NCBI RefSeq assembly: GCF_000143415.4
Contig: NW_003314298.1
Span: forward strand, 248,001-312,000
Source of the DNA: Selaginella moellendorffii
Taxonomy: Eukaryota; Plantae; Lycopodiophyta
Direction: 5' to 3'
DNA length: 64,000 bases
A model generated the notes under the pieces. That model saw nothing but the letters and a program-made list of their open reading frames with translations. It was not told where the DNA came from and searched no databases. This document shows positions 5,031 through 52,600 of the stretch, piece by piece; position 1 is the first letter of the stretch; every line of letters begins with the position of its first letter. A program made the translations under genes and the position numbers.

Positions 5031-5057
5031 AAGCTCTATTTCGTTAAAGTGGGATTT
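5031..5057 (+). repeat. Left terminal inverted repeat of the Sola-like element
   Basis: Reverse complement of 17331-17357; preceded by CATA. Confidence 0.92.
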
Positions 5058-5822
5058 ATTCAGTAAAATGGGACTAGGTACAAATTTTCAAGTATTTGAA
5101 AATGACGTGAAATTATATGTTTTTTGTCCAGGGGCTAGACATATCTGGGGCATGGTGACTAGCGTGGTGACTTTGTGTTCAGACTGAGTCCATCTGGTTG
5201 TATAATAAATCTCATTGTCAAGGTGAACAAGCCGAATCTGAAGCTAAAGAAGAGCGATGGCATGCGCACACACACTATTTGTTTGTTCATTGAGCGTGTG
5301 GTGAGCTTTCCAAGATGAACGTCATTCCTATCAGCCAGACATATAACTTAATGGTGAGAACATTTAGATATTATTCAATGTTATCTTTTTCTAACGAATC
5401 TAATTGTGAAGGTGTAGCAAGAGGCATTGCTAGTCTGGAGAAGTCATTTAACTCATTTGACCCTTAGTGTATTTTCATGAAACTAAATAACATTCATATT
5501 ATTAAGGAATTTCTCTAGTACCTTTTTTTTACGACATAGAGGCTTGCATTTCTTTCAAAGGTGATTTAGTAAAAGGCCTGAGGGCACATGCCATTCTATT
5601 TCTCAGACCGGTATTAAGATATACTAGTGCAAAGGGAAAAAGGTATTTGGTGATCAAGTAAATGGCATGAGGGCACACGCCATTATAAGCCTAAGCGCTA
5701 GTGGACACCTCCTTTATGGTGTCACGCCTCACGCCATCATGCCATGCCATCATGCCTCCTCTGATTCAGATTCGGATTGTTCACCTTGAAATAAAATACA
5801 TTAGAAACTTAGTAAAGGAATA

Positions 5823-8800
5823 TTAATGAATCTCACCTTGAACCCGGGTTATGAATGCTCTTGCTGCATCTCTTGCATGGTCTGGCAAGGTGATGGTGGC
5901 ACTCTGCTTCCGCATCCAACCATGCATAACATTATCCACCGATATGCTCATGCTGGGATCCTTTGGATTCAGCACCCATCTCTTTTCTAGGCAATCCTTC
6001 GTATATCCGAAACTTGGCTTGAACCACTCCACAGTTACATTGAAGGAGTTAGTTTCCGCGTCCTCCTTTGCATCAGTGATGCAGCGCCCCACCCATATCA
6101 TTTGTTTTTTATTACTGGGTCTGACAAGCACGACCATTCCTTTGCAGACCTGTACTGGATTGAATGCTGAATCCGGCTTCTTGTTCCTCGGCCCACAATA
6201 GTGATCCTCAACATCGTTATCTGTCACTGCATTTCCAGAGGACATTGTTCCGCTACTATCTGGTGCTCTGGGTTCTGGCCAAAAGGACTCTTCCAATTCT
6301 TCATATACAACCGGCCCATTTTGGATAGCAGATATAATCTTCTCCCAGTATTCGAGCAAAGGCTTGCACCTCTGAAAATAGGATTCTCCACCAAACACCA
6401 ACCCCCTCTTCCAGAAGGCAATATGCTGTCTAATCCCGGCCACTATACTTTCCTAGTCTTTGAGTCCATCCGGGTGCATCGGCCGTGGGGAACCCTGAGG
6501 AATCATAGGTTCCCCAGTTATGGGATCTCTCTTGAAGAGTTCAATGCCGTCCACTGGCAGCCACAGTGTGTCCCATTCTCTCATCTTGTACCTCATCACT
6601 GGAGCACCGTCACACATGCTGAAATGAAACTGAAGAGGCTTGGAGTGGCCAATCAGCGTTTCGGATCCTTCTCTGATGTAGCCTCTTACAAACCCCTTCA
6701 AGTCTGGAACCTCTGTCACAAGTGCAGCTTCAACAGTGCCTTTGATGCAATTTTGGAATTCATCGTAGAGTTGTGGGAGGGTGAGGACATTGGATCGCCG
6801 GAGGGACTCTGCCAGGTGACTGAACATGGCATCAACGTCTTCATGAGTGTGCCCAACCATGAGAAAGCCAAGTGTAACCGTTTCAAATATGCCTTTGGCA
6901 ACAGGCATCGCCAAGTACGCGAAGACGTACATGTTTTTGTTCTCACTGCCAGCATTGTCTGTTTGGAGCAGAAGATGGGGTGGAAGGCCACATTGGCCGC
7001 AAGAACTTCCTTGAGATTTTGCTTCGTTTGGATGAGGCTGTGCATTCACCGGGCGACCAGCCTCGTCGGAATGGCATGAGGCCTCACGTGATAACCCTAC
7101 AATCTGATGGCCAACATATTCACTGGGATGGCATGGGGCCCCACGCGATACTGCAAGCCTTTGCTCCTCCTCCAGCTGAACCCTGTATGGGGTTCGATCG
7201 ACAAGGGCCTTATGCAAGGGTTGGCCGTTCAGCTCAGTCTACGCACTTTGCAGAGACCTTAAGTGTTTTGCTAGGGACGCAATCATCATGTTTGCACCCC
7301 CGCCACCCCATAGAGGTACAAAGAAGTTCCCATAGTTCTGGGCACCATGCCCATGAGCGATTATGCCAAACAGAGACACAGGCAGCTGCATGAATGAAGA
7401 GATTGCCTTGGGGGCAGGATTGAGTCGAAGTAAGCATGTCTTTTTCTGGTCCATTTTGTCGTGGATGATGCAGAGGTAAGAGTCAGGTCTCTCCATGGAG
7501 AGAATCCTGTTATGATAATATGCAGTCCTGCAGCTTCTCTGCTCGATGTTGTGGTCGAGCCGCCTTCTAACCAACGTCTCTCGCTCTTGAGCGCTGCAAG
7601 AATTCTTCGACAAAGCCATTTTGATAGTAGTGCACTCGTCACACTTTGAAAAGCTGGAGTACTTTCCTATACTCATATCCCTGAACCTGTTACTCCACAA
7701 TCTACTAAATCTAGATTGGCTCAGCTTCCTGTAGCCATTACTCTGGAGTTCTCGATTCACATCTTCCAATATGGCCCCCTTGGTATACATGGAAGGGAGA
7801 ACTCGTTGGGTGTCTCGTGTTCCATCTTCCAAGAGGCGGGTTTTATGTGGTTGCTGCTCGCTACATGTCTCGACAAACCTCTTGAAGATTGCCTCTCCAT
7901 ATACAACATGACCCCTGGTTTTGTGCGTACCATCGTTCCCATGGACTACCTGTTGAACCCTTTGTTCCTCGAACTCAGTTTTGATTCTGTAGAATGTGCT
8001 TCGAGGGACTCCATAAATGATTCTCCATGCCTTCATGCAGACCAAACCCCTCTGGAAGACCATGCCCCCCACCTGATGTTCTGAAGCATCAACAGATGAC
8101 CGTAATGCCTCATACACAAAATTGCGAGCTGCCTTCCAGGACAATGTCTTGTATCTTGCTCTCTCCTCTTCAATAGCATCCCAATCAGCATGTTGACAGC
8201 ACCTCCTCTTGCAACAAGCAACTGTCGAGACCATTCGAACCTCCATCGCCATTTTCTGCCTTTTCGGTTCGTTGCTCAGATCCCTTTGGCTGCGCTTTAG
8301 GAAGGTGTACTTTCTTTTCCCATGAAGAGATATTCTGTCATCAGTTGTAGTGGTGTTTGATTGTGAATCCTTCACATTCTCAAACACTAAGTGCCTCAAT
8401 TTCCACCGCACAATGCTTCCAATAGTCAGAATGTTTTCTTCTGTGTCAACAACCTCTAAAATCGCAACTCCAATATCATCCCAGCCCAATTCTTGATTAG
8501 CAACTGCATCTCTTGGATCGACAACTGTGGCTAAGCCCTCAGCTACCACCTCCCCCTCGGGGTTGTTTAGAAACACCTTTGCCTGAATTCATGTAGCACG
8601 GTTCTTAAGATCCACGAAGGGAACATGCGTCGCACTTGCGCTGTCCCTAACATCTGCTTTCTTCTGCAGATTTTTCAAGGCAACAACAACATTTACCCCG
8701 ACGACCATCTCTCCTCATTCAATAGTGACCACATTTGCATCGAAGACAGTCTCTATTGATACAGCAGCATTGCCTTCCCCAAGCCTTTGACAGTGTATAA

Positions 8801-8891
8801 CAAAGTTCCGATCCATAGACACAAGGGTCCCTTTTGCAACTCTCTTCCCACCATTCAAAATGTAAACCTTTTCCCCAACCCTGAAGGCCAT
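5823..8891 (-). pseudogene. Sola1-like transposase, one reading frame interrupted by four in-frame stops
   Basis: ORFs 7239-8576, 6453-7217 and 5823-6443 share one frame with an ATG at 8891. Motifs IIHDKMDQKK, LQTDNAGSENKN, FLMVGHTHEDVDAMFS and Cys clusters (CCKRRC, KCDECT). Stops at 8715, 8589 (TGA) and 7239, 6453 (TAG). Confidence 0.85.
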
Positions 8892-10165
8892 TCTGAAAGT
8901 GCAGAAAAAAAGTTAAGACCATACAAAAAATGATTGGAGAATGGCCTAAATCATAACATACCAAATAGCATGAGGCCACATGCCATTATTCAAACATGCT
9001 ATTGACACCCACGTGAAATTTCGCATTCACAAAATTGGCATGAGGCCTCATGCCATCTTGATATACACACAGCTGCAGGCAAGTAAAAACATACATGACA
9101 ATACGCTAGCCATGAAATTGCAAGGGCCCAAGATGGCATGTGGCCTCATGCCATTTCTAAATGTGGTCCTAAGCCATTCCATGGTGAACATACCAGGAAG
9201 CACAAGTGCCGAATATCAAGAGGAAGCGGTAGCCACACCAAAGACAGTGCCACTCGCAACACTACAACTACTCGTAGCGCCGCTCGCAACACCGCAACTG
9301 CTCGTAGCGCCGCTCGCACAAACTGCCACTCGCATAAACTGCCGCTCGCAATGCCGCAACCGCTTGTAGACGCATAAACCACAGCTCACAACGCCGCTTA
9401 CACAAGCAGCGCTCACTGCGCTTAGCGGAACCAAGAACACGGTGCACAAAAATGATAGACCTGGGAATGAGTTCGAGAATTCAAAAATAACACACGCTTG
9501 AACGTCACATCAAATCCTATGACAAACCAGATCTTATGATTCCTTTGACAAATTTCAAACTGAGTAGCTTCTAGACTTTGCTGTCGGAGGTTGAACTTTG
9601 TCACATCATGTCCTTGCCTCGATCCAGCTGTGCCATGTCAGTGATTCGAACTTTGCCATGCCGTGTCAGCGATCCGCGCCAAGATTATTCGCCGTGTAAA
9701 GGAATAATTATGCTGTGTGTGTATGTCCATTTATGGCAATATAAGGCCACACGCCATTCAAAGAATAATGCTAGTCGAGCATTTTTTGGTGCATTTTTGG
9801 GTTCAAAATTGCATGAGCCCACACGCTATAAAGTTTACCTGTACCAAAAATAGAAACAGCTTTATTTACTTGGGAATTTAAGTGGTTGAGGCATTTTTAA
9901 ACTTACAAACACATGCCCTACTTACATTCCTTTGGTTGCTTAAAATTCAAAAATATTATAAACCTTTCTTTTTGCATTTTCAATGTTTTCAATTATGGTT
10001 TTTGATTTTCGCAGGACCAGCCTAGTAATCTATTTGCATCCCGTCATGTTTATAGCTAGCTTTCGTTTGTCCCCTTCGTTAGCCTGAGATACATCTGCTC
10101 GGCATCTGCCTCTTATAGCATTTGCCCAGAAAGGGCATCTTTCTTCACGCAGCATTTGCCACATG

Positions 10166-10191
10166 TTTAGGGTTTAGGGTTTAGGGTTTAG
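10166..10191 (+). repeat. Short interstitial plant telomeric repeat (TTTAGGG)3+
   Basis: tttagggtttagggtttagggtttag. Confidence 0.85.
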
Positions 10192-11304
10192 CAATTCAGT
10201 AGCTTGATAAACATGCAAATACAGAACTTGATGCAAAATCCTTTGATATGTCACAATGCCCCTAGGACCATAAACACATTTCAATAGAGAGGGTCCTTTC
10301 ATTTCATAACTCCTTATTTAGATCTTGGTGAAACCAGAGTTAGTGAAGTTGGTTTTTTGTGATCCCGCATCTGATTGTGATGTCCCTTTGCAGTGTCGAT
10401 GGAAAGGTCAATGCACACCAAACTGTAGAATCTTGGTGTAAAATCTAGTTGCGATCTAACGGTTAGATCTCCAGAAAACTCAAAACAATCTCGCGCGTGT
10501 CAAAATATTCTAGGAATATACTCCTATGTGCCCCTGAAAATGGCATGCGGCCCCACGCCATTCAAGAGATAACGCCAGATGACGCCAAGCATTTTTTGGT
10601 GCATTTTTTGGGATCAAAATTGCATGAGCCCACACGCTTGAACGTCACATCAAATCCTCTGACAATTTATTTAGCTGAACATCTGGCATTTTTGGAAATA
10701 CAAGATGCTTTGGAATATCCAATCATGCATGGTATAAATATAACGAGGGTATTAAATGATATCCCAATCATGATCTTTCTTTTGGATTTCGTGTGCATGC
10801 AGTCCGAGGAATGATGACGTTGCGGATTTCTTTTGGATTTCACGTGCATGCATGCGCGCGGCGATCCAGAAATTAATGGTGGCGCCCAAGTCCGAGGAAT
10901 GATGACGTGGCGGGATTACCAACCGTCGTGACATTTCGTGCGTGTAAGGTTAGGTTTTGCATTTTGCTTCGTACTCGCGCTCGCGATCACGCTCATATTC
11001 GCGCTCATCTACCTTCTCTACAGGTTTCTCGTGTGCATCGGCGTCCACTCGCGCTTGCATCACACTCGTGCTCGCATCGCGCTCATGTGCATCGGCGTCC
11101 ACTTCAAGACACACCCAGTTTGTAACTTTGCCGCCAACTCCGCCGCCCACTCCGCCACCCACACGCAGCCCACTTGGCGTCCCGGGAGATTTCAGCGCCA
11201 CTCTCCAACTGTAAGTGGCAGAGTAGCCTTGCTGCTACGATCCGCTGCACACACAGTGCATATTCGCCAGCGAGTCCGATTGTCACGCCTCCATTCGGCT
11301 TCAA

Positions 11305-14117
11305 ATGGTAAGTCTTTTAGGCCAAGTAGAAAATGGCATGAGGCCACATGCCATTCAGTAGCAACATTGGCATGCACCGATTGGGCTCTCGAGTGCAGTC
11401 CGGTTACAGATGGCGTGTAGCCTCACGCCATCTTAGGATGCAGCCTCAAGATATCTGATGCAGTGGTGAATGGTGTGTGGCCTCACGTTATTTCCAGCTG
11501 TTAGCTTTTCATCTGTCAGCTCTAATTGTTGTGCATTTCTGAACAGGTAAGGAATTGCGTTCTTCTTCCAGCCACTGTCAATGTGGATGCAGAGAAGGGG
11601 GAGGAGCTCACCAGTTGGACTTTCGGGATGGAAGGCGAGGATCTGAGGCTGTACAACACAGATGGTAGGAGAAAAGAATGCATGGGGATCCTCATCCAAG
11701 TGACAGACACTCCATGCAGTTCCATGCAAGAATATGGACTGGCACTTGTGGTAGAGACAGCGTCTGCCTTCAAGATCCACCTTGCACATCCTAACGGCTT
11801 CCCGGAGGGGGGCAGTGGCTATAAGGAATTCCTAGAGGGAGCTAGGGAGAGGTTGTCCAGGAGGCCCACAATTTCAAAGACGCTGCGGGTCTATGAAGAT
11901 CACATGGAATCCACGGACCTCACCTACGGCGATGTTCAAAAACTATATTCCAACATTGAGCCGTTGAGAGTGCCTCCAGTTCGCGAAGCGAAGGGGAAGG
12001 GGGTCGATCTGGAAACTACCCCGAAGCAGAAAAGGGTGGTCAAGCTCAAGCCGACGTCCGACTCTCCTCCAAAAAAGAAGCTACTCGGTGATGCCATTGC
12101 CTCGGGTTCGAACACTACACCCACCAAAAAGAAGAGCCGCAAAGAGCAGAAAGAGCAAGAAGAGGCAGCAAAAATCGTCGCAGATAATAGTACTTGTTAC
12201 TATTCCAACAAAGTATATACAATCGACGTGAGCCATATCGACATCCAAAGCAAATACAACCACAAGCTAGTATCTGATGAGTGGGTGGAGAAACTGAAGC
12301 AGAAGATGCTGGCAAGTCCAGTAACACCCGACATCGCAGACGTGATCCCCTACTACCGAACAATGAAGGGCGAGATGAGGTTTCTAGACTTGATCAATAG
12401 GAAGGTGTTGGACGATCAGAACATCCGGTTCTATGCCGTCTCCGGGCAGCATTCTAGCTTGGCGATGCAAGAGATAGTTGTGGATATTATGGTGGGCGAG
12501 GAGGTGAAGAAAGTCTTTAAAACAAGAGTTGTCCGCCTGATAAAAGGCAACTCGCCCCTCCGATCTATCATATACATCTCCCACACGCAGAATGTCAAGC
12601 AAGAAACGTGCTACAAATCGGGTCTGCACGAGACATTGGCACGAACACGGAAGCTCTGGGTTCAACTGAAGAAGCCACAAAAACCAGGACAAGGACGTGC
12701 ACTAGCAACTAGCGCCTGGCAGGTAAGCCTCGTTGCATGTGGCATAGCATGTGGCCTCATGCCATTTCCATTGCAGGAATTCTCGAGTCTTCTCTCGAAA
12801 ACACTGGGGGTCAATGACACACTCAGCATCCATAACATTCTACTCGCGACAAAAGTTGTTTTTGACAAATGGGTAGATGTGCTGAGGAGGTACCATAACG
12901 GGGAGTTACTAAACTCAATGGGTGTGGAGGACGGCCGGAAGCCCAATGATTTGAAGCTCAACGCCTTGCGTTTCTCGCGGTCTCTAGATGACGATGACCT
13001 TTTGATAGTGGCTAATGCTCTTCTACGTGGTGAGGTAGTCTTCAACAAGACCAAAATGACTCCCGGCCATATTGTGACATACGAGGACTTGTGCACGACT
13101 CTGAGAGCTCGTGCGCTATTGAAGGATTGGATCTTCGAGCAAGTGGCCGTGGAGACAGTGAGCATCGACACCACGCAAGAGATGATGGAAGCGCTAGATT
13201 TGTCAAATGAAGACATCGACGAGTACGTGAAGGGGGCCCCCAAGTTCATCGATCTGCTGCGGGATGCCACGAAAAGTAAAGCTGAGAAGTTGGATCAGTA
13301 TCCAAATTTCATTAAGAGTGATGTCGACCGCCGGCTTCAGAAACAGCTCGACCCCGCAGCAGAAGCCTATCGAGAACCTTACCGGGTATACTTGAATTCG
13401 GATGAGGATCAAAGGTGGAGGAGCATCGTTTCCCGCGGAGATGAGCAGGTCAAGAACATCTTTTGTGTGATGGACTTCACAAACGAGGAGATCACTCATG
13501 CAGACGAAGTTAGCTCCATCATTAACTTAATGGTGGGACTTGCGGAGGTGGAATCTTCAGTCCACTATATGATCTACGACTCCGAATCCTATCACAAGTT
13601 CTGGAAGGCCTTGAACGAGGTGAAGGCTTGGTTGAAAGGCAAGGAGATGCGGGAGATCCATGGGATAATGGCTAAGAAGAAGATACCGACGAATGTCCGC
13701 ATCTTCACACTCGCCCTTGTTATTGGTCCTGCAACAGAGTGGGACTGGAGTGACTTCCCAGCTTCGTTCGACCAGGCCGATCGAATTGATCTGAGGGAGG
13801 TCAATTTACTCGTGCCTGAGGAACTGAAGACGGCTATGGAGCTTTCGAATCCAAAGAAAGCTCCAGGTGCAGCATGGGAAATGCTCAACTGGGTTTTCAA
13901 CGCAATAGCGGGTGGGTCACCTACTTCCGACTCCAAGGGCAAATGCGTTGTCGAGTACAACTGCGGCGGACTATTCTTTCGAGCCGCACTACTCAAGGGT
14001 GTCCTGTGTGTTGCGATGACAAACTCCATTGAGGAGGTGACTTCAATGGAGCATATAATTACAGTTGCCAAAGAAAAACAGTATCTTCTCTGCAAACCTG
14101 GTGAGTACGCACTTTAA
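11305..14117 (+). CDS. ParB/Srx-like domain protein with a C-terminal degenerate beta-class DNA amino-methyltransferase-like region (ParB #1, transposon cargo)
   Basis: 863-aa ORF; ATG at 11305 plus intron 11308-11546 joins in frame; 54-bp in-frame intron at 12723-12776. ParB-like YNHKLVSDEWVEKLK...FYAVSGQHSSLAM. MTase-like NIFCVMDF, NPKKAP and GKCVVEYNCGG..RAALLKG. Confidence 0.7.
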
Positions 14118-14150
14118 GTTTAAATGTTATCTCACAAGCTCTGTATGCAG

Positions 14151-16014
14151 GAGCGTGGCCACCCCCAGATGATGAAACGACGTTAACAGCTACTATTGAA
14201 GATACCCATATTAGGCCGAGCTCACAACCTGCACAAGGTAAGGTCACGTGAGGCCTCACGCCATTTTGATTATAGATCGTTGTGAATATTCAGACACGAG
14301 GACTAAAAAGCGCATTGGTGGCACGTCGAAGAAGGACAAACAGACAAGCAATAGGAAAAAAGGAGGTACAAATTATATTTGCAATGGCGTGTGGTCTCAT
14401 GCCATTCCTTGCAGGAGACACTTCTTCAAAGGCAAAACAGGCAAGCACCAGCCAAGCTCAAACTGACAGTGGTCATTAAAAGCGAAAGCACGTTGGACAG
14501 TCGTCGGGATCAGAGGCGTTTGATTCGAAAAGGAAGAAGGGCAAGGAAAAGATGATAGGTAATGCCTCGCGGTTATGGCGTGTGTGCTCATGCCATTCAT
14601 TGCAGATCAAGGGCTGAGTGAAAGCAGGCAGTCACCACCTCCTGACTCAGATTCCTATGGCAGACTCCCCTTCCCCAATCTCAATGGAGAGGTACAATGG
14701 ATGAGGGATGCTTTTCAAGTCAGGGCCACGTTTTTCTCATCTCGTCGTCTTCAAAGGGTGCAAGAACATGCAGAAACCATGTTAAGACAGTCGGGTGAGG
14801 ATACGGTCCTAGGTCACGCACTAAAACAGGCTATGGATGTCTTGTATTTTGAGATGGAGACTCGGCCAGATGATTTTCCCAAGATGGTCCTGGAAGAACA
14901 AGCCATCCAGCCTGAGCAGCCTATGGAAGAAATGCAGGAGGGGGATGAGGAGCCAGAGAAAGATAATGAGCAAGAAGAGCAGAAGGACGAAGAGGAGGAC
15001 AAAGAAGAGGAGGACGAAGAAGAGGAGGATGAAGAGGACTTGGATGGTCCTCACAATGGTGACGATCACAATAACGACGACGACGATGATGACGACGATG
15101 GCCAGCCTGAGGTGGCCAAAGAGCAGCGGAGGAAGGTCATACAAGACAAACCATCAGGTAAATAATAGTACATCCATTCCTAACCTTTTACCATTTCTAA
15201 CATTGTCCATGTAGGTCGCAGAGCAAATGGTAAGTAGAGATTATTCAGTTGAATTTACAAACTCTAGCCTTTAGTGTCGAGGAAGGATAGTGCCAAGCAA
15301 GGGTCGAAACGTATGTCCAATCCTTCAGAATCAGCAGTGCGCCCAAGTGATATCGGTCCTAGTTCCTCAATAGCAGTTGATGGTAAATATAGTATAGTCG
15401 ATTCAATGTGCTAATGAGTTTGTTTTTAGTAGCACGGGAGGATACCATCTCAATCGAAGGGAGATATTTGGACATGCATATGGATCCGCCAGTGGACTCT
15501 ACTTGCCTGCAAGAGTCATCAGAGCTGGTGAAGGCTACTATCCATATCAACGCCAAGCAAGCTGACCACGCTCCACGTGATGCTGCCCATACCACTGAGT
15601 CAATCTTGTCCACATATCCAACTGACGGTGACCAGGCGCCATTGGACCCGCATGAGGCTACCCCAGCCGCCGAGCCGGTCGTATCCTCATTTCCAACGGA
15701 CTCAACGTGTGCCCAATCGTCTGACTACGCGCCGTTGGAACCTCCCTACACCGCCCCTGCTGCCTGTTCGGTCATGTCCACTTTGCCAACGGAGGCACTA
15801 GCTGAAATGGCGTGTGATCACACGCCATCGGAACCACCCCATGCCACTGTTGAGCCAGTTGTACCAGAGTCTACAGCTGAAATGGCATGTGCCCACACGC
15901 CATCGGATGTGATTGACCCCACATTGCAGAGGAGAGTATTTCCGCCCTTCATGTTTCCTCGACCAAAACCCTCTCAACGACCATCGGGAGCACCATTCGC
16001 TAATATTGTAGATG
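14151..16014 (+). CDS. Downstream low-complexity, acidic exons of the cargo gene (one in-frame TAA at 14477)
   Basis: Phase-1 GT-AG introns at 14101-14150, 14238-14293, 14366-14414 and 14559-14605 keep the frame into ORF 14575-15165 (poly-E/D). Junctions between 15158 and 15429 were not resolved. Confidence 0.5.
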
Positions 16015-16039
16015 GTAAAATTGACTTGTACCATTTTTT

Positions 16040-16915
16040 ATGCTGACGCATTTCATTTCAGAGTCATGGCGAAGGTACTGTATCGTTTTTGATCTGAACG
16101 GTGTCTTTTTCTCCCATGAGCATGGCTCGTCCTCGAATGTCATTGCACCCTCCAAAGCCTGCGGTCGCAAGTTGATCAAAAGAGACAGATTCACATTAAT
16201 CACACGGGAGAAACTGCAGGATCTAATAATGACCATGCGACACTTAAAACAGAGGGCCGGGTTGAATTTGCAATTGGGAGTTTGGACATCCATGATGCGC
16301 CACAATGCATTAACGTTGCTACAGATGATGCACGATCAGACGCGAGTAATATTACCATTTGACTTTCTCCTAACGCAGGAGGATTGCTTGACTATGGTCC
16401 ATGTGAGGGGTAGCAAGCCCATCTTCGTCAAGCTAGAGGCTGTAGTGATGAACCGGACTGCTAGCTCAAGTGAAATCCTCATCATCGATGACTCGCCGAT
16501 TAAAACTGCAGCGAACACGCACACATATGTAGTGCACCCCATCTCTTGCAGTATGGAGAAGAAACCGTATGTTCTGGGGGACCTTGCAAAACGGCTTGGA
16601 GCAATGGTGATAGAGAACCGGCCAGTCCAGGAGGTGGCTGCAGAAATCAACCAAATGGCAGATGGAACGGTATATCAGAAGCCATTTGATCGGACAGACA
16701 CCAGTCATCATTTATGGCATGTATATTGTCTAGCCAAGCACTATCCGCATCTCCATAATCTGCTCAACCAGATGGGTTCTTCGACCACTGAACATGAGCG
16801 TGGACGTATTAGAGAAGAGATGGCATTACTATTGGGTTTAAATCCTGATAGTGTGGAGAGTGATGAAATTCCAAGATTATTGTATAGGCGTTGGAGGCAA
16901 AAAATAACAGTCTGA
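16040..16915 (+). CDS. HAD-superfamily FCP1/NIF-like phosphatase domain (DLNG type); probably the last exon of the cargo gene
   Basis: IVFDLNGVF, GVWTSMM, FDFLLTQEDC, KPIFVKL, ILIIDDSPIK motifs. Intron 16015-16061 joins ORF 15408 in frame. Confidence 0.8.
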   Translation: MLTHFISESWRRYCIVFDLNGVFFSHEHGSSSNVIAPSKACGRKLIKRDRFTLITREKLQDLIMTMRHLKQRAGLNLQLGVWTSMMRHNALTLLQMMHDQTRVILPFDFLLTQEDCLTMVHVRGSKPIFVKLEAVVMNRTASSSEILIIDDSPIKTAANTHTYVVHPISCSMEKKPYVLGDLAKRLGAMVIENRPVQEVAAEINQMADGTVYQKPFDRTDTSHHLWHVYCLAKHYPHLHNLLNQMGSSTTEHERGRIREEMALLLGLNPDSVESDEIPRLLYRRWRQKITV

Positions 16916-17330
16916 GATGGCATGTATTTATTTAAAAATGTAACTTATTATGGCATGGGGTTCCATGCCATTGTATTAATATTAAAAGACAATTCTTTGA
17001 GAGGATTTGCATTATACTAGAAGTGTTATAGCATGTTATTGGAAGTCTACGAAGTTGTTTTATTAATAAGGGGAAAGTAAATATTGAATGGGGACTTGGG
17101 CTCCACCTAGACTCGGAGCAACTGAGCCAATATTAAAAGGATGGAAAGAAAATGGACGACGATGACAAGGAGAAGAGAGAGGTGAAGCAGTGGCAGGGGG
17201 AGGAGAAGTGATTGAGTAGACATTTCCTTATTTAAAATAAAATGGCATGTGCCTCAATGCAATTGAATTTTGTTATATTTATATACTATATAAAGGTTTG
17301 GAAACCTTATTTTACAAGTGGGATAATGAC

Positions 17331-17357
17331 AATTCCCACTTTAACGAAATAGAGCTT
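17331..17357 (-). repeat. Right terminal inverted repeat of the Sola-like element
   Basis: aattcccactttaacgaaatagagctt followed by CATA. Confidence 0.92.
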
Positions 17358-40015: not shown

Positions 40016-40346
40016 CAATTTTTTAGACTTATTAATGTATCTAAATAAAAAGCTTCTATGATACTTTGGACTTCCATAATAATAAAAAAAAGCAAAATTT
40101 CATTCTATCTATATAGCCACAACATTTATGTAATTTTTATTTAAAATATTTTTTTCATTCATTATTAAGTTTCTATACATATTTGTATATACATATTTAT
40201 ATATAATCTTTATAAGCATAAGCTCTGTTATTTTATTAGCTTTCACATAATAATCTATTGATCCGATGGCTGTCGTTGGTTGAACGGTGACGATTGTTTC
40301 AAAAGACCTAATGTAAGGGTTTTCACGGAGGGTTAAGTTCAAGCTA

Positions 40347-41631: not shown

Positions 41632-44600
41632 ATGGACGCCTCTTCAGCTAGAAAGCGTGGGCGAGAGCCGAATGAAGAGGAAGAGCAGGAGGAGAAAAAG
41701 CGACTTAAAGTAGGTGAGATTGCTCGTGTGCAATTTCGTCTGCAGGAGGCACTTATGGAAATTGCACGCCTTAACTTGAAATCGTGGGAAGCCGGGGAGG
41801 ATGCCGAACTAAAGGAGCAGATAGCCTCAGAGAGAGTGCGGGCGAGTCAACTCCAGGAGGATGAGTGGAGACTGGAACGCGAGCTCTCTGAAATCCTCCA
41901 GCCGCCACCTGAATACTTGAAAAGAGTGGAGGGTATTGCCGAATCAGCATTTGCGCAGGAGTACCAAAGAGTTGGGGGATTAGACAACGTGGAGTTGTTG
42001 CGTGAGAAGCTGGAAGAAACAGGAGACATGTGGAAGACGGAGAAACTCATGATAGCACCTGTTGTCACGTTAGTTCAGTCGAGTGGCTGGGGAAAGTCGA
42101 GGACTACCTGCGAGCTTGCGAATTTAGGTGTGTTCGTCATCTACTGCTCATTCGCTTCATCTGGCACCGCGTACCCTCCAAGGTCTGCCTTTGCGGACTT
42201 CTTCTACACAAACGGTGTCAAATTGCTCAGCTCGGGTCCTACGCTTTTGTCGCAGAGCAGGTTCATGCTCTTCTGCATTGACTACTTTGTGTCATGCATC
42301 GAGGCTCTTCTGCAGCTGACTTCCGGGGAGGACCCCATGGATGCCAAGAAGTTCTTGAACGATCTCATGGTTGGGGAGAACTTTTGGGGACTGGTACAGG
42401 CGAAGATGGAGATAGGAAACGAAGCACGGGAGGAGTTTGCTAAGCGCCTTGACGTCGGCCTGAAAGAGAAGCCTGGTGAGAACACCAATATCTGGGGCAT
42501 CTGGGAAAGTAAGGTGTTTAAGAAGTAGAACACGCTTGAAGGTCTACTGAAGAATGTTCCAGCTCCTGCCAAAGGAAAACTGAAGGTCCTGTTTGTCATG
42601 GACGAAGCCCGATGGTTTGCTTCGCATGCTGATCCGACAACTGTTGCTGCATTTGTTCCTGCAAGGAGAGCTTCCAGGGTGTTGCCTGAAAGTGGAAGTG
42701 TGTCGGTGATGTTCACCGACACAGACGGGAGGCTAAACAATTTTGCGCCGCCCAATAAGGCATCCGGTTTACGGTTTAGTAGCGATCGAGTGGCTGCGGC
42801 GGGAATGCTAGTTGCACATCCAGCGTACTGCTTTTTCTTGGCAGACTTGCCATCGCACGAACAAACAGGTGACCTTCTGCTTGCTGAAGTTGAAGATCTG
42901 GGTCGTCTTTGCGGCTATGGTCGGCCACTGTGGCAAGCATTGGTGAAGGCTTCCGCAAGTGCAGGTGACGTGCTGCTTTTGGCTGCAGATAAGCTCCTGG
43001 GTGGCACTGGTTCGTTCAACAAGTTTTTGTTTGAAGGAGGAGGTCTATCAGATGAGGCTTCTCTGGCTACACTGGGCTGCAGAGTATGCATCAACATCAA
43101 TCCGCATGCCACAATTATCACTGATATGGTTGCAAGTCACCTACTTAGCGTGATGTCCATTTCTGATGACCGGACTCTTGTTTGGACGCATTGGGCTACG
43201 GAGCCACTGGTTGCAGCGGCTGCAGCACAGGTTTTGCGTGCACAAGGGAAGATTGGGAGGACAGGGTGGAAGGAGTGCTTGGAGGCACTTGTAACTGGGA
43301 TGAAGCGTGGATGGGTTGATCGAGGTTACAGGGGCGAGTTGGTTGCACGGGTGCTGCTACTACTTGCAGTGGATAGTCTAGGCAGAAATTCATGGAAGTG
43401 CTTTACTTTTGACGAGCTTTGCCATGGCTTAAGTGGGAAGTCGCTGTCCGATCTTATTAGAGAAGATAAGCAGAATTCAGCATCTCCAACCCCCAAAGCT
43501 CCAGGTGATGGAGAAGAAGTGCAGGTCGAAGTAAACATGCCGCCACCTCCGGCCTTGGCTTTGAAGCGTGGCACAAGGGGAAGCAAGGTTACAGTAAACA
43601 AAAAATTTCCGGGTCAGCCGCAGGTGGCTTCAGCGTCCCTGTCCAAAGCTCCAGGAGAAAAAGCGCAGGTCAAAGTAAACACACCGCCACCTGAGGTGAA
43701 GTCGCCATCTCCAACGCTGACGGCCTCGAAAGCTCCAGGTGGAAGTACGCACAATGCTGAAGGTGAAGGGGAAACAAAACAAGCAGATGGAAGTGGTAAA
43801 AAAGAAATCCACAGAAACATGGGTGCAGCCACGTTTTTTTGCTTGCTATTCAGGAAAACCGACTTCCGACTGCAGGACCTCACCGCAAAAGATTTGCTTG
43901 AATTTGGAAAGGCTGGCGTAGGAATCATTTGCCGTGAAAATGAATGGGGCATAGACATCGTCATCGTTGGGTTCTTTGGTGACACGTTTAGCCTGGAGAC
44001 GATGACACTCATTTTGGTGCAGGTGAAACACACAGAGAAACTTGATGTTGATTTAGCATGTGCTAAATGCTCTCCGGAGTTTTCTCAGATGTTGAGTAGC
44101 AGTGCAGGGCCTCAAGGTTGGACTGGGTTGAAGGTGCCATACGCCAGTCTGGTTTTGAATGTGGCCCATGTGCCTTCCAGCAGTGTTCGTTACAGAACTA
44201 GGAAACTTGTCACAGAAGCATTGCTGAAGAAGACGCCTGCAAATCAGTCCATGGCAATGGCTCTCCATGACGCTCATCCGGAATGCAAAGGCCTTCAGGG
44301 ATGGACAGAAGGCTATGATGGGGATAGATCACACCCGGTCTTCAAGTCATGGGAACGGTATTTTGCTTCAGATGATCGTCTCCAACACATTGTGGTCATT
44401 CAAGGTACGTTTGTGCTGTTTCATTTTCAATCACTTGATGTTATCTTTTGCTCTCCAGGTTTGGATGCATTCTCATCCAAGGACGAAGTGAAAGACCTGG
44501 TCGACATCTCTCTGGATTCTACTGCAGACATGAGGAAACTAGAACAAGTTCAGAAGACGTATGCACATAAAATGTTCGGATGGGTTAAGAACACGGAAAT

Positions 44601-44718
44601 GCGCAAGTGTTTGGAGCCAAAGCTCAGTGTGAAAAAGAGTAAGTAAAACTGAGAATTTTTTTGAGAAATAATCTGAAATTCTTTCTCCATTGCAGAGGTG
44701 CAGATGGAATTATCTTAG
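41632..44718 (+). pseudogene. Crinkler-like P-loop NTPase + PD-(D/E)xK (REase) protein, copy B, with one in-frame TAG
   Basis: ORFs 41632-42528 and 42598-44646 are in the same frame. Walker A VQSSGWGKSR, Walker B LFVMDEAR, GRPLW, GYRGELVARVLLL, GIDIVI...VQVK. Confidence 0.75.
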
Positions 44719-44736
44719 GTGGTGAGATTTAAGAGA

Positions 44737-46482
44737 TGTTTGTTAGCACACCAAGCCTCCCCAAAGCATACTCAAGGTCAAGAGCTTGTCCAAAGGGCCA
44801 ATGTCATACTGTACTGATCTGGCATATGCAATAGAAACTTTGTTGCACCTAGCTGGAGTAATAGCTTTTCTTTGTCCTTGTCCCTGAAGCTAATATAACG
44901 CTTAACTGTGAGAAGGTTATATATCTTAAATAGAGAAAGATATTTTTGTGGACAATATTTTTGTGTCATGCTAAGGGCAAAGACAAAAATGTTTACCTCA
45001 AATCCAGTTGATTCACTTCATCTGTGCTTTTTCTTGGCAAGTTTCCTGAGTCTCTCCTAGTGGTGGTGACTATGGACAAGCTTGTCATTGAGGCTACTCT
45101 TGTGCTGGTTCTTTGCCTTCGTGTTTGCAAGATTGGATATCTCAATGATGGTATCCTGTGGTGTTAATCCCTTCATGATTTAGAAGTATTGCATTGAGAA
45201 TTTTGCCTACATCTCCTTCGTGTATATTAGGTCAGAAGAGATCTCTTGCATTGCTTTTGTTAAGTGCTGCCTATAAATGACAATGAATTTGATTGTTGGA
45301 TTTTTTGTTGTTTCCTTGTCTATCCTTTTGACAAATGTCTAACCATCCTCGTCCATAGTGATTGGGATTGCATCACCTAGATCCACTAAGTTCTCCTATA
45401 CAAATCAGCTCCTTGAGGGTTTTCACCCATCGTGGACAAAGAGTGTAGTGATTGTAGTCTGTGTCAATGATGTACCGAGACACTGGGAGTTTCTAAATTG
45501 TTTGATTGTTGAAGTAGTAGTGCTTGTACCTCAACAAGGGTGTCCCATCTGTCCTGTCAACACTAGTCTTTTTTTTCACCCCCATTGTTGTAATTGTGCT
45601 GTTGTATTTCATCCTTTTTCTCCTCTCTTTGGAGTCTTCATTTCTACCATCTCTTGATTTATTTATTGCATGACACTTTTTCTTTTTGCTTTGTATGGAG
45701 GTTTTTGTCCCTGCACTATTGCTTACAACCTTGCTCCAAAGTTCACATCTAACCCTCTTTTGTGGTGGTTCATCATCATCTTCTTCTTTTTTTCATGATG
45801 AGGAAGGCCTCTTGTCTTGAATTTCATCACTACTCTTGTCACTTTCTGTCTCACTATTATCCTCTTCATTATCATTGTGTTGTACCTTATCTTTCGCTTA
45901 GATGTCATCATCTCTTTTGTCTTAATCGTCCTCACTCTCTTGATCATTAGACATTGATGTTAATGAGGATGTATTGCTTAAGGTATGTTTATCGTCAACA
46001 ACTTAATCTACCTTATGTCCATCATTTGGATTGTAGTTGGAGAGGTCATGGAATGGAGGCTCTGATTCTTCTATTTCTCTTTGATCAAAAAGTCTCTCAA
46101 TAAGAATCCTATTGTTGCAACAACAATGCCCTTAACAAGGTTAGTCTATCCTTGAGGGTTCCATAATCAGTGAAGGTTGTATGGATTCTTTTCTCTGTAG
46201 ACTGTATTGTAGTTGATGGAATAAACTCTGAGTCTTGAACAATATTTTTAATGAATGTCTTTTGAAGCTCTATAAATGGCCCTCCTTCTCTGTTCATGTC
46301 TTTGTCAGGAATCTCCTCTTTTTTTATCACAATCTAAACTATTGGACTATTTGGGTTGGTAAGATCCACCAACACTAGATCATTGTCTTGTATCTCCAAT
46401 GTCCACTTTTGTGGTAGTGTGGAGTTGTAGCCTCTTTTCACTCTGATGGACTCATGTAGAAGTGTTTTAGATTGTTGGGCCT
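44737..46482 (-). pseudogene. ParB-like gene #4, diverged homolog of ParB #1
   Basis: Manual translation: DYNHYTLCPRWVKTLKE / DLGDAIP / IKFIVIYRQHLTKAMQEI (45241-45295) / IMKGLTPQDTIIEIS aligns with #1 KYNHKLVSDEWVEKLKQ / DIADVIP / IRFYAVSGQHSSLAMQEI / LIKGNSPLRSIIYIS. Confidence 0.75.
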
Positions 46483-46544
46483 AGAAACACAAAAGAACTT
46501 ATTAGAATTACTTAAAATATTTTTGAAATGGGAGAGAATGGTTC

Positions 46545-49500
46545 TTAGTGTGAGGCCTCACGCTAAGTGAAAGGGGTAATGGGTAATTCTATAAGAGGTT
46601 AATAGCATGAAGCTTCAAGAATGGATGGGGTGTATGAAAGGGGTAGTGGAGGTAATTCTATAGGAGGTTATTAGTATAAGGCCTCACACTTAAGAATGGA
46701 TGGGGTGTGTTTGCCGATTCCTTGATTATTATAATCTTACTTGCCCATTCATCCTATGGACAGACATTTGAGCAAGATTACCATCAAAAAACAAGACAAA
46801 CCAAAATCCTTTTAGCACTTTAGCATGAGGCCTCACACTAATCCTTAAGCATGAGTCTAGTCACAACGTGTTGATGGAGGTTACTAGTATGAGGTCTCAC
46901 ACTTAGAATTGCTTGTGATATTTTTCCCAGTTTCTTGATGACAATCTTATTCACTTGTGCAATAAACATGCATGCAAAGGAGATTGCTATCGAGAAACTA
47001 GGCTAGAGGAGGTGGGTGGGCTTTTTTTCTTTACGTGAGGCCTCACGCTAAGGTTTTTGTATGAGGTTGGACACCATCTATTTGCAGATTGGATTAAAGT
47101 ATTATGGAAGGATGAAGTCATTTTCTTGGCATGAGGCTTTATGCTATTCATTTATATGCATTTGTTTCTAGGTGTCTAAGTGAGTAATCTTACTTGCCAA
47201 TTCATCTTTTAGGTAAATGTTTTAACAAGATTGCTCCCCAAACACTTGCAAGATTGGGGAAACAATTAGAAGGTTGTATATTTAGATGTTTGCTTAACAT
47301 GAGACCTCACGCTAAGATTTTACATGAGGTCGGACACCATACTTTTGTGGGTGGGCTTTAGGTGTGCTGATGCAATGAAGGCTTTTCTTGGTATGAGGCC
47401 TCATGCTAAAGGCTTCACTAAAAGACTTAGTGCAAGGCCTTAAGTTAAAACATTGGTGCGAGGCCTCATGCTAAGGATTTTTTTTTTTTTTGGTGCTTTT
47501 GCTTTGGCTTTAGCATGAGGCCTCAGGCTTAGATTTTTCCCAGCTATTAGTTTCAGGAAAGGTAACTGGCTTTAGTGCGAGGCCTCACGCTAGATTTTTT
47601 CTGGCTATTGTTTCAGTAAAGGTGACTAGCTTTAAAACAAGGCCTCACACTTAGACTTTTTCATGGCAATAAGAAAGGTGATTAACTTTAGCACAAGGCC
47701 TCACACTTAGACATTTCCATGGCTATCGGTTTCAGGAGAAGTGACTGGCTTTGGTGTGAGGCCACATGCTTATGTCCAAGATAATGGCCTTAGCATGAAG
47801 TTGCATGTTAAATTTTGGTTTGGCGCAGGAGCTATTAAATTAATGTGAGGCCTCATGCTAAGCCTTTGAGTTTGGGTTGGAAAAGTCCCACACCAAGCTT
47901 GGCTTTGCATGTGAAATGGAAGTTGTGGTGAGGGTTAGGGTTTCTGAGAGGGGAGAGGGGAAGAGGGAGAGAAGAAAGAATTCACAATCTTTTGTTCGTG
48001 CTACCTTGTTTGCTCCTATTGTTGAAACCCTAAAAAATGATAACCTTAACCTTAAATCTCTCATTGACACATATGGGAATATTTTGCACTTGAAAATTCT
48101 TAATGCGACATCACATGCTAAAGTGTTGAACATGCCTGATGAAAATATTTTGAGTTTTATAATATAATATGCTTTTTAGATGTAAAAGTTTTACAATGTT
48201 GCACAATATTTTTTAGTTGTTATAAATTTTTTATTCTTTATTTTATCTCAGAAAACATTGTTGTAGTTTCCTCTTATGTCTTTTATAAAATTGCTATAGC
48301 AATTTTACTCTTTTTTCTCTTGTTTATCCATTTTATCTCTTTTTCTTCCATTTGTCAGAAAAATATATCTTTTGAATTTTGCTCCTTGTGTGTTGTTTAA
48401 TTTGTCATAAAAGTATAACTTTTGGAGTTCCTTCTTTTTACTAAATTATTTCACTTGTCAATATTGTACAACTTTTGAATTTCCCTTGTTGTACCACATT
48501 ATTTGTTTGTTCTCACTTGTCAGTGTAGTATAATTTTTGAATTATCCTTTTTGGGCCATATTAATTATTTTAATTCAGTTGTCAAAATTATAGAACTTTT
48601 GAATTTCCCTCACTTTGGGCTTATTTAGTTTTTTCTATTATCTAAGGTAGGAGTTCAACAGTGCATATTTCAAGTGGCAAGGCTTTGGATGTGGATTTTG
48701 TGGGTGCAGAAAATCGACAGATTTTCGTATGGCACTCATCAAAGTGGTGATTTATGTGAGTTTGCACATTTATTTTTGCTATTAAAACTAAATAGACATT
48801 GGGCTTTAATTCAGATTTTTTGAAAGTTTTTTAGTTTGACTTGACTATGATATGACATTTCAGCCACATCAATATTATTTCGCAATGGTAAGCTTTAATT
48901 AAATACTTTTTCTTTTTATTTCTTGGTGTGTGGCTTCGCACTTAGCTTGGCTCGTTCTTTAGAATCTTTTTTTTCATGTTTACTTGATATTTTTTTTGTT
49001 TAGTATGTAACCTCGTGCTAAACTCTTTTTGGAGTTGTTTGATAAAATAAGTTTTTCTTAATATGTGGCCTCACCCCAAGCTCATTGCTTTTACAATTGT
49101 TATGGTAAAATGTTTTTTGCTTAGCGAGAGATTTTGTGTTAAGTTTTTTGGGAGTTAATCTGTGGAAACATTTTTTGCTTAGCGTGTGGCCTTACACTAT
49201 ATAGAGTAAATATGAGGAAATGTTTTTTGCTTAGCATATGGACTTGTGCTATGTTTTTTTTGAAGTCAATTTGTGAAATTACTTTTTGCTTCGCATGAGG
49301 CCTTGTACTAAGCTTTTTCTAAGCTCAATCTTTAAAAATGTTTTTAGCTTAGCATATGGCCTTGCATTAAGCTTTTTCTTAGGTCAGTCTTTAAAAATGT
49401 TTTTAGCTTAGCGTGTGCATTTGCACTAAGTTTTTTCTAAAGTCATACAATGAAAATATTTTCTACTAAACGTGTGGCATCATATTAAAATTTTTCTAGA

Positions 49501-49665
49501 GTCATTTTGTGAAAATATTTTTTCCTTAGCGTGTGCCTTGTGCCAAGCTCATTTTTGAGTTATTTTTTAAGCTTATTTTGTAGTCATTATTTTTAAATTG
49601 CACAATCTCTGTTTAAAATCTCTTTTATCCTTGTGATTAAACTTGTTTTTGTGGCCTCATATTAA
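46545..49665. repeat. Array of ~25 variant 22-bp palindromes, consensus TTAGCRTG-AGGCCT-CAYGCTAA, partly in ~59-60 bp tandem units
   Basis: Examples at 46545, 46820, 47294, 47388, 47453, 47510, 47572 and 47840; ~59-bp periodicity over much of 49180-49550. Confidence 0.85.
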
Positions 49666-52600
49666 GGTCAAATTACAATATGCATTTTACAAAATTTATT
49701 TTATATTTTTATTTTTTGTATATGATTTTTTTGTTCCTTAGTATTTGTATATTATGCTATATTATTTGAATTAGTTCTATATATGATTTAAATTTGATCT
49801 TGATTTTTCTTTTTTGTTTCAATTTTCTTGAAGGTAGTGTAGTCCATATACAAAATACCACACAATCTCTCATAAGTATTAGAAGGATTGAATCTCTCAA
49901 TGAATAACGTATTTGCTGTTGTGTTCCTTTAGGACATGGAAATGCTTTGATTTGTATACTTCAAGTCTATAATAGTAATGTCACTCCAATAAAGAGTAAG
50001 TTATTTATTGAAGTACTTTTTGTTTAAAGACAATATCAATTTAGGGAAGAAGGTTGTTCTTGTAGTTCTGATGATGAACATATTGGATCTCCAAGTTTTA
50101 CACATTATGATGCAATAAAAATAACCATAATTTTTGTTGTAGATATAAATAATTGATCTATCTGGTCTATTGCTATTGTGAAGTTAGTGGATAACAATCA
50201 AGTTATTATTGCTGACAAGTTGGTTATTGTTATTAATTTGAAGGATTTTTTGCACAATATAGCACTTGTTTGGGATTATCTTAGAATCTCAATATCTACT
50301 ATCCAACCTTCTAGCAATATTCTGCTAAGTTCTTTTGTCTATTGGAGATTGTTACATGTTATTTTTAAAAATATATTTATCCTTTAAGAATGACAACATC
50401 TCCAACTACCTTAAGAAATAAGAGGCAAAAATATAAATTCATCAAAAGATCCTAAAAAGCACAAAAATAAGATTGAGTTATATTTAACACAATAAGCACT
50501 ATAAATGCCAGAATGGTTTTAACAATTGACTGTTGTAGTTTAAAATGTTATCAATAAACTCATTGAGAAGTTGAGGAAAAAAACTAGAAACTTCTTTAAA
50601 TATTTAACTGAAAATAAAGGTGTAATTTTGTTTATGAAGTTTTGTCAGTAGCCATCTCTTATTAAAACATCTAAATTTCTCACTTGGTTTTCAACAAAGG
50701 AATTTTTTTTGAGAAAACTTGGTACACTATTCATGGCATCTCAAGGGTAACATTCTTTAGGAGGAAAATAAAATGGAGGAATGATTACTAAGATGCAATC
50801 CATAGAAATGAAGGAAGTCATAAAATATAGAAAAATATTATTCTTGCTGAAGTATTATTTAGGAGATTTATAAAGATGTGTAGTGAAAAAATATCATAAA
50901 AAACTAGAATGCTCACTGATGGGACTAAAGACACACAATATATGTACATTTAAGATGCAATTTTGATGAAGGTAAATGTAGAGTCAAAGCAACAGAAGAA
51001 AAAACCGATAAGTGCTTTAGCATTTAGCACATTATAGAATTACGTATTTCAAAATATTATAGTTTTTTAAAATGTGATACGTGCACAATTATTAAAATAT
51101 CTTAGCATCATTTATGACAAAATGGATAAAAAATATATATGTTCTATGATTAAATCTTGTTCCAAAGGCAACCTCAAAGGTGTTTTAATTATTAATTTCC
51201 CATGATTGCTCATGGCCATGAAATAGAAAATTATGGTCACTTCTTTATTCTATTATAGAGGGGTAGATTAAACTTTACCATTTCATCTCTATTCAAGTGT
51301 TTATATGATTTACAAAAGTCAAAAGTAGCAACAACGATTACACATCCCCTTCATCAAGTATTGTAAAACTCTTATGCATTTTAAATCCAATAAGAAATGG
51401 AGAAATGTCTTCCATTAAGTTATTAACTTTTAAGTTCTAATTATACTATTTTTCTAATTACTTATAATCTTCAAATGATATTTTTTAGGCTTTAATGCAA
51501 CTCTAACAAATAGTGATTCTGCTCAATTAATTTCTAATGAACAACCAAATTATATACTTATGCCAACCCACTTACTTCTTTAGATGGATAATGTTGGGAG
51601 TGACAACATGTAGCACACTTTATCTTTCTCCCCTTAAACCAACTAGAAAAAGGGTAATTGCTTGATGAAAAAGCCTTTAGTGGCTATTTTATCCCCATTT
51701 ATCCCCCAAAGTTCCAAGAATCCATGGTGACAGTATATCTAAATCTCATCCCATGATCACATGCGCTACACAACAAAAACATGTACTTTATAATAATGAC
51801 TATAACTTTTCTAGATAGTTTATATACTAAGTTTTAGTCTTGGGAATGAGGTTTATTTATTATGACACTGACAATACTCAGATTCTTTAAATGTCAGTCT
51901 TGGAAATGGGGCTTCATAATCAGCTTTCTTGTAAACATAAGAGCTTTTAGAATTTTAAATTATCGTGTATACACATGCTCTATCATTATGATGAATCCTA
52001 CTTTGCTACACATATATTCTTTTCTACACATGCCAAATGTCTAGGGAAATAAATTGCAAGGGAATATAAACCACATTATAGTGGTAGAGCACGTTGGCAC
52101 GCTACCATTCTCTCATGTGAGATTTCCTTTTAGTCTTGGAAATATAGATAAAGTTGATTCTTTGATGTGATATTACTTTTGAGTCTTTCGAAAGATTTTG
52201 ATTTCTTTTATCATTATTTGCAAACAATTCCCAAAAACTTTTAATGAGGATTCTATGTAAAATATACCTTGGTCTTATCATATGAGAGGATTGCGATATA
52301 GGCAAGCAATAGAGTTTTTAATATGAATTAATATGTAAATTACAAATGTCATGGAAAGTTTTATGGAGTAGATTTCTTAGTGCTTTCTGCTGTGCTGTTC
52401 ATTTCTTCATTTATCTTGCTCTGGACTGTTGTTTCAAAAATAACATGAGCATTTTTATCAATCGTGATAGTGGTCTCCACATTCCTAGATGGGTAATAAG
52501 GACCAAGAGTGTAATATGGAGATTGTGGTAGTGAAGTAAAATTAACATTCTCACATTCCTTTGCACTACAACTCTTACTCACAGATCTTGTATTTTCCTT

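Follow-up and report, generated by a model that had tools for sequence, protein, structure and literature searches.

Bacterial ParB/parS and Noc/NBS systems employ palindromes of 16-22 bp in many copies, and paralogous proteins use related but different sites. Noc, ParB and KorB are dimeric palindrome binders, and canonical ParB carries an arginine-rich CTP-binding motif, GxxRxxA, has a helix-turn-helix behind its ParB domain and spreads from its palindrome with the help of CTP. Here we describe a ParB-like pseudogene and a palindrome array in E2, a dead DNA transposon of Selaginella moellendorffii, and compare them with E1, a near-intact element of another family. Both lie in a 64,000-nucleotide stretch of contig NW_003314298.1 (positions 248,001 to 312,000), which is called the window and to which all coordinates of E1 and E2 refer.

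According to the available parts of the sources, the layout of these elements is already published for algae, and a functional parallel exists in the VANC/VANDAL system. Sola1-1_Ec32 of the brown alga Ectocarpus, an element of 21.5 kb with 282-bp terminal repeats, AA...TT termini and a 4-bp target duplication biased to end in A, has a gene for ParB plus an N4C/N6A methyltransferase opposite its transposase, and self-binding was proposed (PMC12477816). A target preference for AWWT has been called a hallmark of Sola1 (PMC3845634). Red-algal Plavaka elements have inverted-repeat arrays beside ParB-like PAG3 genes, again with a proposal of self-binding (bioRxiv 10.1101/2025.02.11.637652). VANC of the Arabidopsis VANDAL elements is a demonstrated anti-silencing accessory protein, and protein and motif show family-specific evolution (PMC5735166).

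Like Sola1-1_Ec32, E1 has its ParB-like gene opposite the transposase strand, as have E2 and an element outside the window (locus L007), and a 4-bp duplication ending in A. It differs in its land-plant host, its size of 12.3 kb, its 24-bp repeats, its NIF/HAD domain and the existence of two families with variant sites; internal palindromes such as those of E1 and E2 are not mentioned for Sola1-1_Ec32 in the available text (PMC12477816). The 4-bp target duplication and the terminal inverted repeats of E1 are Sola1 features, and both elements are probably of the Sola1 type; the E1 duplication is CATA rather than AWWT in the single insertion examined, too few to show a preference. With the PAG3 elements E1 and E2 share inverted-repeat arrays beside a ParB-like gene. 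However, PAG3 elements carry an EnSpm-type transposase and a 2OG-oxygenase domain, whereas the E1 transposase is of the DUF7869 and not the EnSpm/Plavaka type, and the available text of that work reports no family-specific repeat variants as found between E1 and E2 (bioRxiv 10.1101/2025.02.11.637652). VANC/VANDAL resembles E1 and E2 in its family-specific motifs in non-coding regions and introns and in tandem spread (a working model), but involves Mutator-like elements, a DUF1985/DUF287 protein, short non-palindromic motifs and a demonstrated function (PMC5735166). In the E1 frames scanned, DUF1985/DUF287 gave no Pfam match. Unlike bacterial ParB and Noc, E1 and E2 show no ParA, lack the arginine motif and encode the protein in a spliced eukaryotic transposon gene; they have a ParB fold, yet are not members of a canonical ParABS system. 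By language-model features fungal DUF3723 proteins are the clusters nearest to the E1 protein (0.96-0.97), which is a lead only, and the E1 protein gave no Pfam match to PF12520 (DUF3723). In the literature searched, mostly without subscription papers and without preprint supplements, we found no account of such a layout from a land plant, nor of palindromes that vary from one family with ParB to another.

We propose that the E2 palindromes are likely binding sites of the element's own ParB-fold protein, whose outer-base preference has likely diverged from that of E1; we assign this reading a probability of roughly 55%. The E2/E1 system would work like VANC-type self-recognition built on a ParB fold.

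Results

Organisation of E2

The interval 44737..49665 is the promoter-side middle of E2, a Sola1-like element of a second family beside E1. A ParB-fold pseudogene and a transposase pseudogene stand head-to-head with the palindromes between them, which is the E1 layout inverted:

44964..44974, minus strand: E2-type half-site within the intron following the ParB domain, where E1 carries a full site (12744)
44997..45516, minus strand: ParB/Sulfiredoxin (Srx)-fold domain pseudogene, with a frameshift near 45.4 kb and in-frame stops
46283..46495, minus strand: probable upstream exon of the ParB-like gene, a marginal match (score 42, shuffle maximum 40)
46545..48121, no strand: array part 1, 18 sites, consensus (C)TTAGCRTGAGGCCTCAYGCTAA(G), including a 56-62 bp tandem of 5 units at 47510-47772
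48923..49665, no strand: array part 2, 9 sites and 2 degenerate ones, including a 59-bp tandem of 6 units from 49179
49812..51607, plus strand: transposase pseudogene, head-to-head with the ParB-like gene

The first-pass annotation, made from the sequence alone, had taken the pseudogene for a homolog of the ParB-like gene of E1, and this is borne out. The peptides it quoted map to 45240-45293 (minus strand) in E2 and 12423-12476 (plus strand) in E1; the E1 domain aligns locally to the E2 frame with a score of 124, whereas 200 shuffles reached 46 at most, tblastn finds E2 with E 3e-10, and a profile of the E1 domain and 15 relatives matches only E1 and E2 in the window (i-E 6e-10 for E2). Both E2 genes are dead, with 4 stops per 117 aligned codons in the ParB-fold pseudogene and 14 stops in 215 aligned codons of the transposase. 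The transposase at 49.8-51.6 kb, and hence half of E2, had been overlooked; it is recognised by homology search (E 8e-27 and 8e-6) and by alignment scores of 266, 96, 93 and 58 against shuffle maxima of 42-53, the last piece being marginal (53 vs 50). A 3' part of the ParB-like gene was not detected in E2, and a search for E1-like terminal repeats of E2 found none.

E2 is truncated at about 44735 by a duplicated segment. Pieces of one duplicated gene with a P-loop motif, presumably Crinkler/STAND-like, occur at 1-1075, 40019-40793 and 41307-44733; the first of these shares 96% identity with 43671-44733, and the cut end of E2, at 44736-44802, recurs at 2776-2850. The idea that 1076-2775 is the missing 3' end of the E2 gene found no support.

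The palindromes of E2 and E1

E2 contains 29 palindromes of 22 bp, 27 of them clear (46545-49488) and two degenerate (49526, 49644). Sites were called with an iterated matrix, the matrices being seeded with the consensus of the first-pass annotation. The 27 E2 sites compare with none in any of 50 dinucleotide shuffles, and the 23 sites of E1, with consensus ATGGCRTGWGGCCWCAYGCCAT, with a shuffle mean of 0.08. The position directly upstream of the ParB-like gene, given earlier for about 25 palindromes, needs correction: the array begins about 1 kb upstream of the ParB-domain match and lies equally upstream of the opposite-strand transposase pseudogene. The 22-bp geometry is right, while the supposed AGGCCT centre is in E2 often TGGCCT or degenerate, with A at position 9 in 19 of the 27 sites.

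The two families differ in their outer bases. In half-sites position 1 is T in 49/54 cases for E2 and A in 43/46 for E1; position 3 is G in 34/46 and A in 6/46 of E1, A in 46/54 and G in 6/54 of E2; and the flanking base is A in 28/46 of E1 and C in 31/54 of E2. In a leave-one-out test, positions 1 and 22 by themselves sufficed to place 49 of 50 sites in the correct element. The symmetric arm changes claimed before are therefore present, but not in both arms of all copies, as had been stated: 22 of the 27 E2 sites have both outer bases changed and five only one, while none has the E1 form. Since the seeding could have biased this result, E2 was scanned again with the inner 16 positions of the E1 matrix only. 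The scan gave 21 hits with T at position 1 in 38/42 half-sites, which rules out seeding bias as the source of the variant. Eleven of the 27 sites are not independent because they belong to two sub-arrays of tandem repeats of about 60 bp. When each flank cluster is represented by a single site, T is still found at position 1 in 31/34 half-sites, and 17 flank classes in E2 and 22 in E1 bear their own family's form without shared flanks, so that a single tandem amplification is not the whole story of the variant. On sequence grounds, the E2 variant is symmetric and family-wide.

Decay does not account for the outermost changes either. The core positions of E2 are heavily deaminated, to about 22% (G>A 29/135, C>T 31/135), but the changes at positions 1/22 and at the flanking base are transversions, and methylation decay is thus no explanation for them. 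The G3>A/C20>T change is of the deamination type and commoner than the background; deamination could contribute to it. The comparison of 46/54 at positions 3/20 with 13/27 at the most decayed single position gives p 2e-8 with sites treated as independent.

The coding DNA of the two elements is only 44-50% identical, with 26-32% transversions. E2 is therefore a separate old family and not a decayed E1 copy, and the term transposable-element subfamilies, under which both had been placed, does not apply. The similarity of the 16-bp core despite this coding divergence is the strongest sign of selection on the sites. The array does not stem from an unrelated element, an outcome that had been considered at the outset: it lies in the same element as the ParB-like gene, in a layout as in E1. 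The half-site in the orthologous intron, to which the E2 half-site matrix gives 10.5 bits and the E1 matrix 0.0 (p 0.0066, from 20,000 shuffled versions of the intron), ties the variant to the ParB-like gene.

The same data can be read in another, in our opinion unlikely, way: the sites are real protein-binding sites, but their outer bases differ through drift that was tolerated and became fixed by concerted evolution; the binder reads mainly the core, and the families recognise each other's sites. The similar core, the clustering of the 11 sites in tandem sub-arrays and the leakiness of position 3 in both families would fit such drift, as would the joint divergence of VANDAL21 motif units inside tandem repeats in the available text (PMC5735166). 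Against drift stand position 1, which is held as tightly as the core, the many flank classes that carry the family form without common flanks, and the flanking base, which switches too.

E1 as the reference element

5031..17357, no strand: E1, near-intact high-copy element with 24-bp perfect terminal inverted repeats, a 4-bp target duplication CATA and 23 palindromes
5826..8897, minus strand: E1 transposase, DUF7869 (Sola1-like), PF25273 E 1.6e-38
11526..16915, plus strand: E1 accessory gene region (one gene or two) with a ParB/Srx-fold domain, a helical region, an acidic linker and a NIF/HAD-like domain

The ends of E1 were fixed by placing contigs of four public sequencing runs on the element. 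The empty-site joint 5026>17358 was found in two of the four runs, and the depth outside E1 is lower by about 20-fold. This copy differs from the bulk of its own family mostly by C>T and G>A changes, a bias that is expected for a methylated, high-copy family. A contig from another insertion departs from the reference at 5027, just outside CATA, and hints at a target preference of the E1 family. The catalytic region of the transposase is DUF7869, which we take to be the same as Sola, and its N-terminus has only a sub-threshold match to Transposase_23.

The accessory region is closed by a NIF/HAD phosphatase-like domain at 16040-16915 (NIF E 2.2e-5). In the relative P0015 the NIF domain shares the reading frame with a ParB-like segment. 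A degenerate methyltransferase-like domain is possible within this region: an atlas score of 0.80 to PF01555 gave the lead, and a profile comparison falls on motif I, but its E of 0.61 is no better than that of column-shuffled controls. No methyltransferase match was obtained for the region in Pfam, NCBIfam or PHROGs, and no DPPY/SPPY is visible in it.

None of the 23 E1 sites falls in the six main coding blocks (6059 of 12327 bp). Sites occur near both element ends, in transposase introns, and in large number in the intergenic spacer and past the gene ends. Three of them (12744, 14384, 14575) lie 8-10 bases ahead of the 3' splice AG of very short introns; the 54-bp intron at about 12724-12777 leaves the reading frame open. 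Three telomere-like TTTAGGG units are present at about 10165-10190 in the spacer between the two E1 genes.

The splice-proximal sites and the telobox-like run would suit a user of the palindromes that is not encoded by the element, either a host transcription factor or an RNA structure, with intronic hairpins affecting splicing. GGCCCAC- and GCATG-like motifs within the palindromes presumably correspond to TCP and B3 sites. We consider such a use very improbable, since two forms in one genome and the unrelated words in related elements (see below) fit an element-borne binder, the arms within sites lack compensatory co-variation, and many sites lie in the intergenic spacer and beyond the gene ends.

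The ParB-fold protein

For the fold an alignment of 19 rows was built from 17 full-library hits and cluster members; two hits, a repeat artefact and a short fragment, were excluded. Three of the ten clusters checked bear species names, and these relatives of the E1 domain come from Selaginella moellendorffii, Calypogeia fissa and Riccia sorocarpa. The alignment-based model of the E1 domain has a predicted local distance difference test score (pLDDT) of 76-95 over residues 11-140 and matches PadC (Z 9.5, root-mean-square deviation 3.4, 100 aligned), KorB (Z 8.8) and an archaeal ParB-N (Z 8.1). Foldseek returned Noc as top match (E 9e-4) and also ParB. Because of these structure matches the name ParB holds for the fold. 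According to the model, the E1 protein has the ParB/Sulfiredoxin N-terminal fold, and the same fold is predicted for the E2 pseudogene from its homology to E1.

A single-sequence fold of the E1 protein was unusable (pLDDT 33), and sequence-profile searches of the PDB gave no relevant match. Word-seeded searches for homologs found nothing in the length windows 474-1511, 546-2000 and 1102-3145 aa, and locus scans of viral contigs (4/4) and one metagenome scan with the ParB alignment gave no confirmed match.

Related transposase loci and the choice of binder

Seven loci with related transposases from elsewhere were examined (L001-L007), and two of them, L003 and L007, have multi-copy arrays. In 1.9-4.3 kb of sequence no array was found in L001, L002, L004 and L005, and a single palindrome occurs twice in L006. 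In L003 an unrelated palindrome of 22 bp is present in 10 copies, which lie within the transposase gene and upstream of it. The flanking sequence of this palindrome (49-693), GG(G)CCYCACG, resembles the E1/E2 site in its right half, and L003 may use the E1/E2 hexamer in the opposite orientation.

In L007 a ParB-like gene (HHalign E 2.4e-5) stands head-to-head with a DUF7869 transposase, an accessory/transposase layout common to E1, E2 and L007. A different palindrome, 16 bp long, forms two arrays there (8 and 25 copies, 33 in all), one on each gene's side and both apparently intronic. The plant ParB profile missed this gene in a genome search, and pairwise profile alignment found it. ParB-like fragments elsewhere on the L007 contig have no arrays. 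The contig is intron-rich eukaryotic DNA in a record labelled as a bacterial metagenome-assembled genome. Its segment 3116-13150, a probable animal element with the ParB-like gene and DUF7869, adjoins Helitron Rep/helicase frames. The L007 palindrome has an invariant 12-bp core and TGTT...AACA-like ends, which we take to be reminiscent of bacterial parS. Since L003 and L007 carry other palindromes, family-specific sites are real and general across related elements, as far as their sequences tell.

These loci also bear on the question of which protein reads the sites. If the transposase were the binder, the palindromes would be internal sites aiding end pairing or regulation of the own family, and the ParB-like gene a passenger. 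The array is as near to the transposase as to the ParB-like gene, E1 sites occur near both ends and in transposase introns, and all four array-bearing elements examined carry a DUF7869-type transposase; moreover, a transposase has been reported, in the available part of the source, to activate cognate copies sequence-specifically (10.64898/2026.08.24.746577). On the other hand, the palindrome is by inspection unlike the E1 terminal repeat, and L001 and L002, which encode the transposase, show no array in the sequence examined. The L001 transposase is 40% identical to that of E1, compared with 32-33% for E2 and L003, and L001 has no multi-copy palindrome in 4.3 kb, while the matching 4.2 kb of E1 has nine. 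Furthermore, Plavaka elements, whose transposase is of another type, have arrays beside their ParB-like genes (10.1101/2025.02.11.637652, as far as available). Because of the Plavaka arrays and because the close relative L001 is without an array in the sequence examined, we favour the ParB-like protein as binder and regard the transposase in this role as rather unlikely.

Neighbouring systems

The eukaryotic DNA of the window holds host genes and numerous transposons, and its introns are very short. E1 interrupts a second system (17400-23240 and 3900-5026), in which the remnant of a Mutator-like element (MULE)/SWIM-like transposase (plus strand, 20.5-23.2 kb; SWIM sub-threshold) stands head-to-head with an IIDGNHR-motif gene (minus strand); a GC-rich array of two kinds of 22-bp palindrome lies between the genes at 18289-18638. 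The ParB likeness of the IIDGNHR-motif gene is unconfirmed (HHalign E 0.16); if it were ParB-like, arrays would follow ParB across transposase types inside the window. A paralog of the DGNHR-motif gene lies at 24900-27600 (67% DNA identity over 514 bp). Degenerate palindromes of its own, unlike those of the first gene, are located upstream of it at 27.2-27.6 kb and are interrupted by a long terminal repeat retrotransposon. Short-intron host genes are found at 56530-58430 and 59290-61900, a purple acid phosphatase-like gene (motifs only) and a sugar transporter (Pfam Sugar_tr).

Discussion

We favour a mechanism in which a dimer of the ParB-fold protein would sit on each palindrome, one subunit per arm. 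With many sites in spacer and introns, the protein would be loaded along the element and could then act on its own family much as VANC does on VANDAL, either as a self-marking regulator or as an anti-silencing factor. Each new site variant would spread through tandem amplification and turnover.

Several observations weigh against the proposal that the ParB-fold protein reads these sites with a diverged outer-base preference. The E2 evidence comes from a single decayed copy. Transposase and ParB-like gene diverged together between E1 and E2, and this pair can therefore not tell a ParB-like binder from a transposase binder; the contigs of L001 and L003 are too short to reveal whether a ParB-like gene is present. 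Concerning the sites, core positions also differ between the families (42/50 assigned by leave-one-out, partly due to decay), the two arms show no co-variation beyond the consensus inside sites (p 0.40 and 0.74), some E1 sites reach 24-28 bits on the E2 matrix, which speaks against full orthogonality, and the E1 sites 15807 and 15882 lie within a possibly exonic open frame outside the six blocks. As to the protein, GQHS/GQHT/GAHS occupies the place of the arginine motif, with G93 and H95 invariant in 16/16 sequences; residues 145-331 of the E1 model are helical, of mixed pLDDT and match only at Z under 4; and a helix-turn-helix after the ParB domain was not demonstrated in this model. Among the elements examined, three have both the ParB-like gene and the site (E1, E2, L007), too few for a tree-based test.

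How specific would such a protein be? The first-pass annotation had assumed orthogonal protein-site pairs. Given the similarity of the 16-bp cores and the good scores that some E1 sites reach with the E2 matrix, full orthogonality is doubtful, and specificity is probably biased rather than fully orthogonal. A more far-reaching version of the ParB-binder proposal, which we hold only tentatively, is a diversifying ParB/parS-like addressing, in which every family would have a ParB-fold protein that recognises the family's own palindrome, covers only elements of that family and protects or regulates them. As parts of this same tentative scheme, E1 and E2 might represent a natural specificity switch within one plant genome through few symmetric base changes and L003 and L007 complete recodings, and the module might provide a library of orthogonal proteins for DNA loading and pass from one transposase superfamily to another.

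In two algal genome papers of 2025, ParB-like accessory proteins are proposed to bind the transposons that encode them, and the available text of these papers reports no test. E1 and E2, two families of a single land-plant genome whose cores are similar and whose outer bases are swapped, open this proposal to a direct cross-binding experiment. If binding proved indifferent to the outer bases, the E1/E2 difference would be ordinary motif turnover in a known element type. If the proposal is true, a fold of the bacterial segregation type would have been co-opted for family-specific self-recognition, and the role that VANC has in Arabidopsis would have been reached by a second route; these elements would also be a possible source of orthogonal DNA-targeting proteins.

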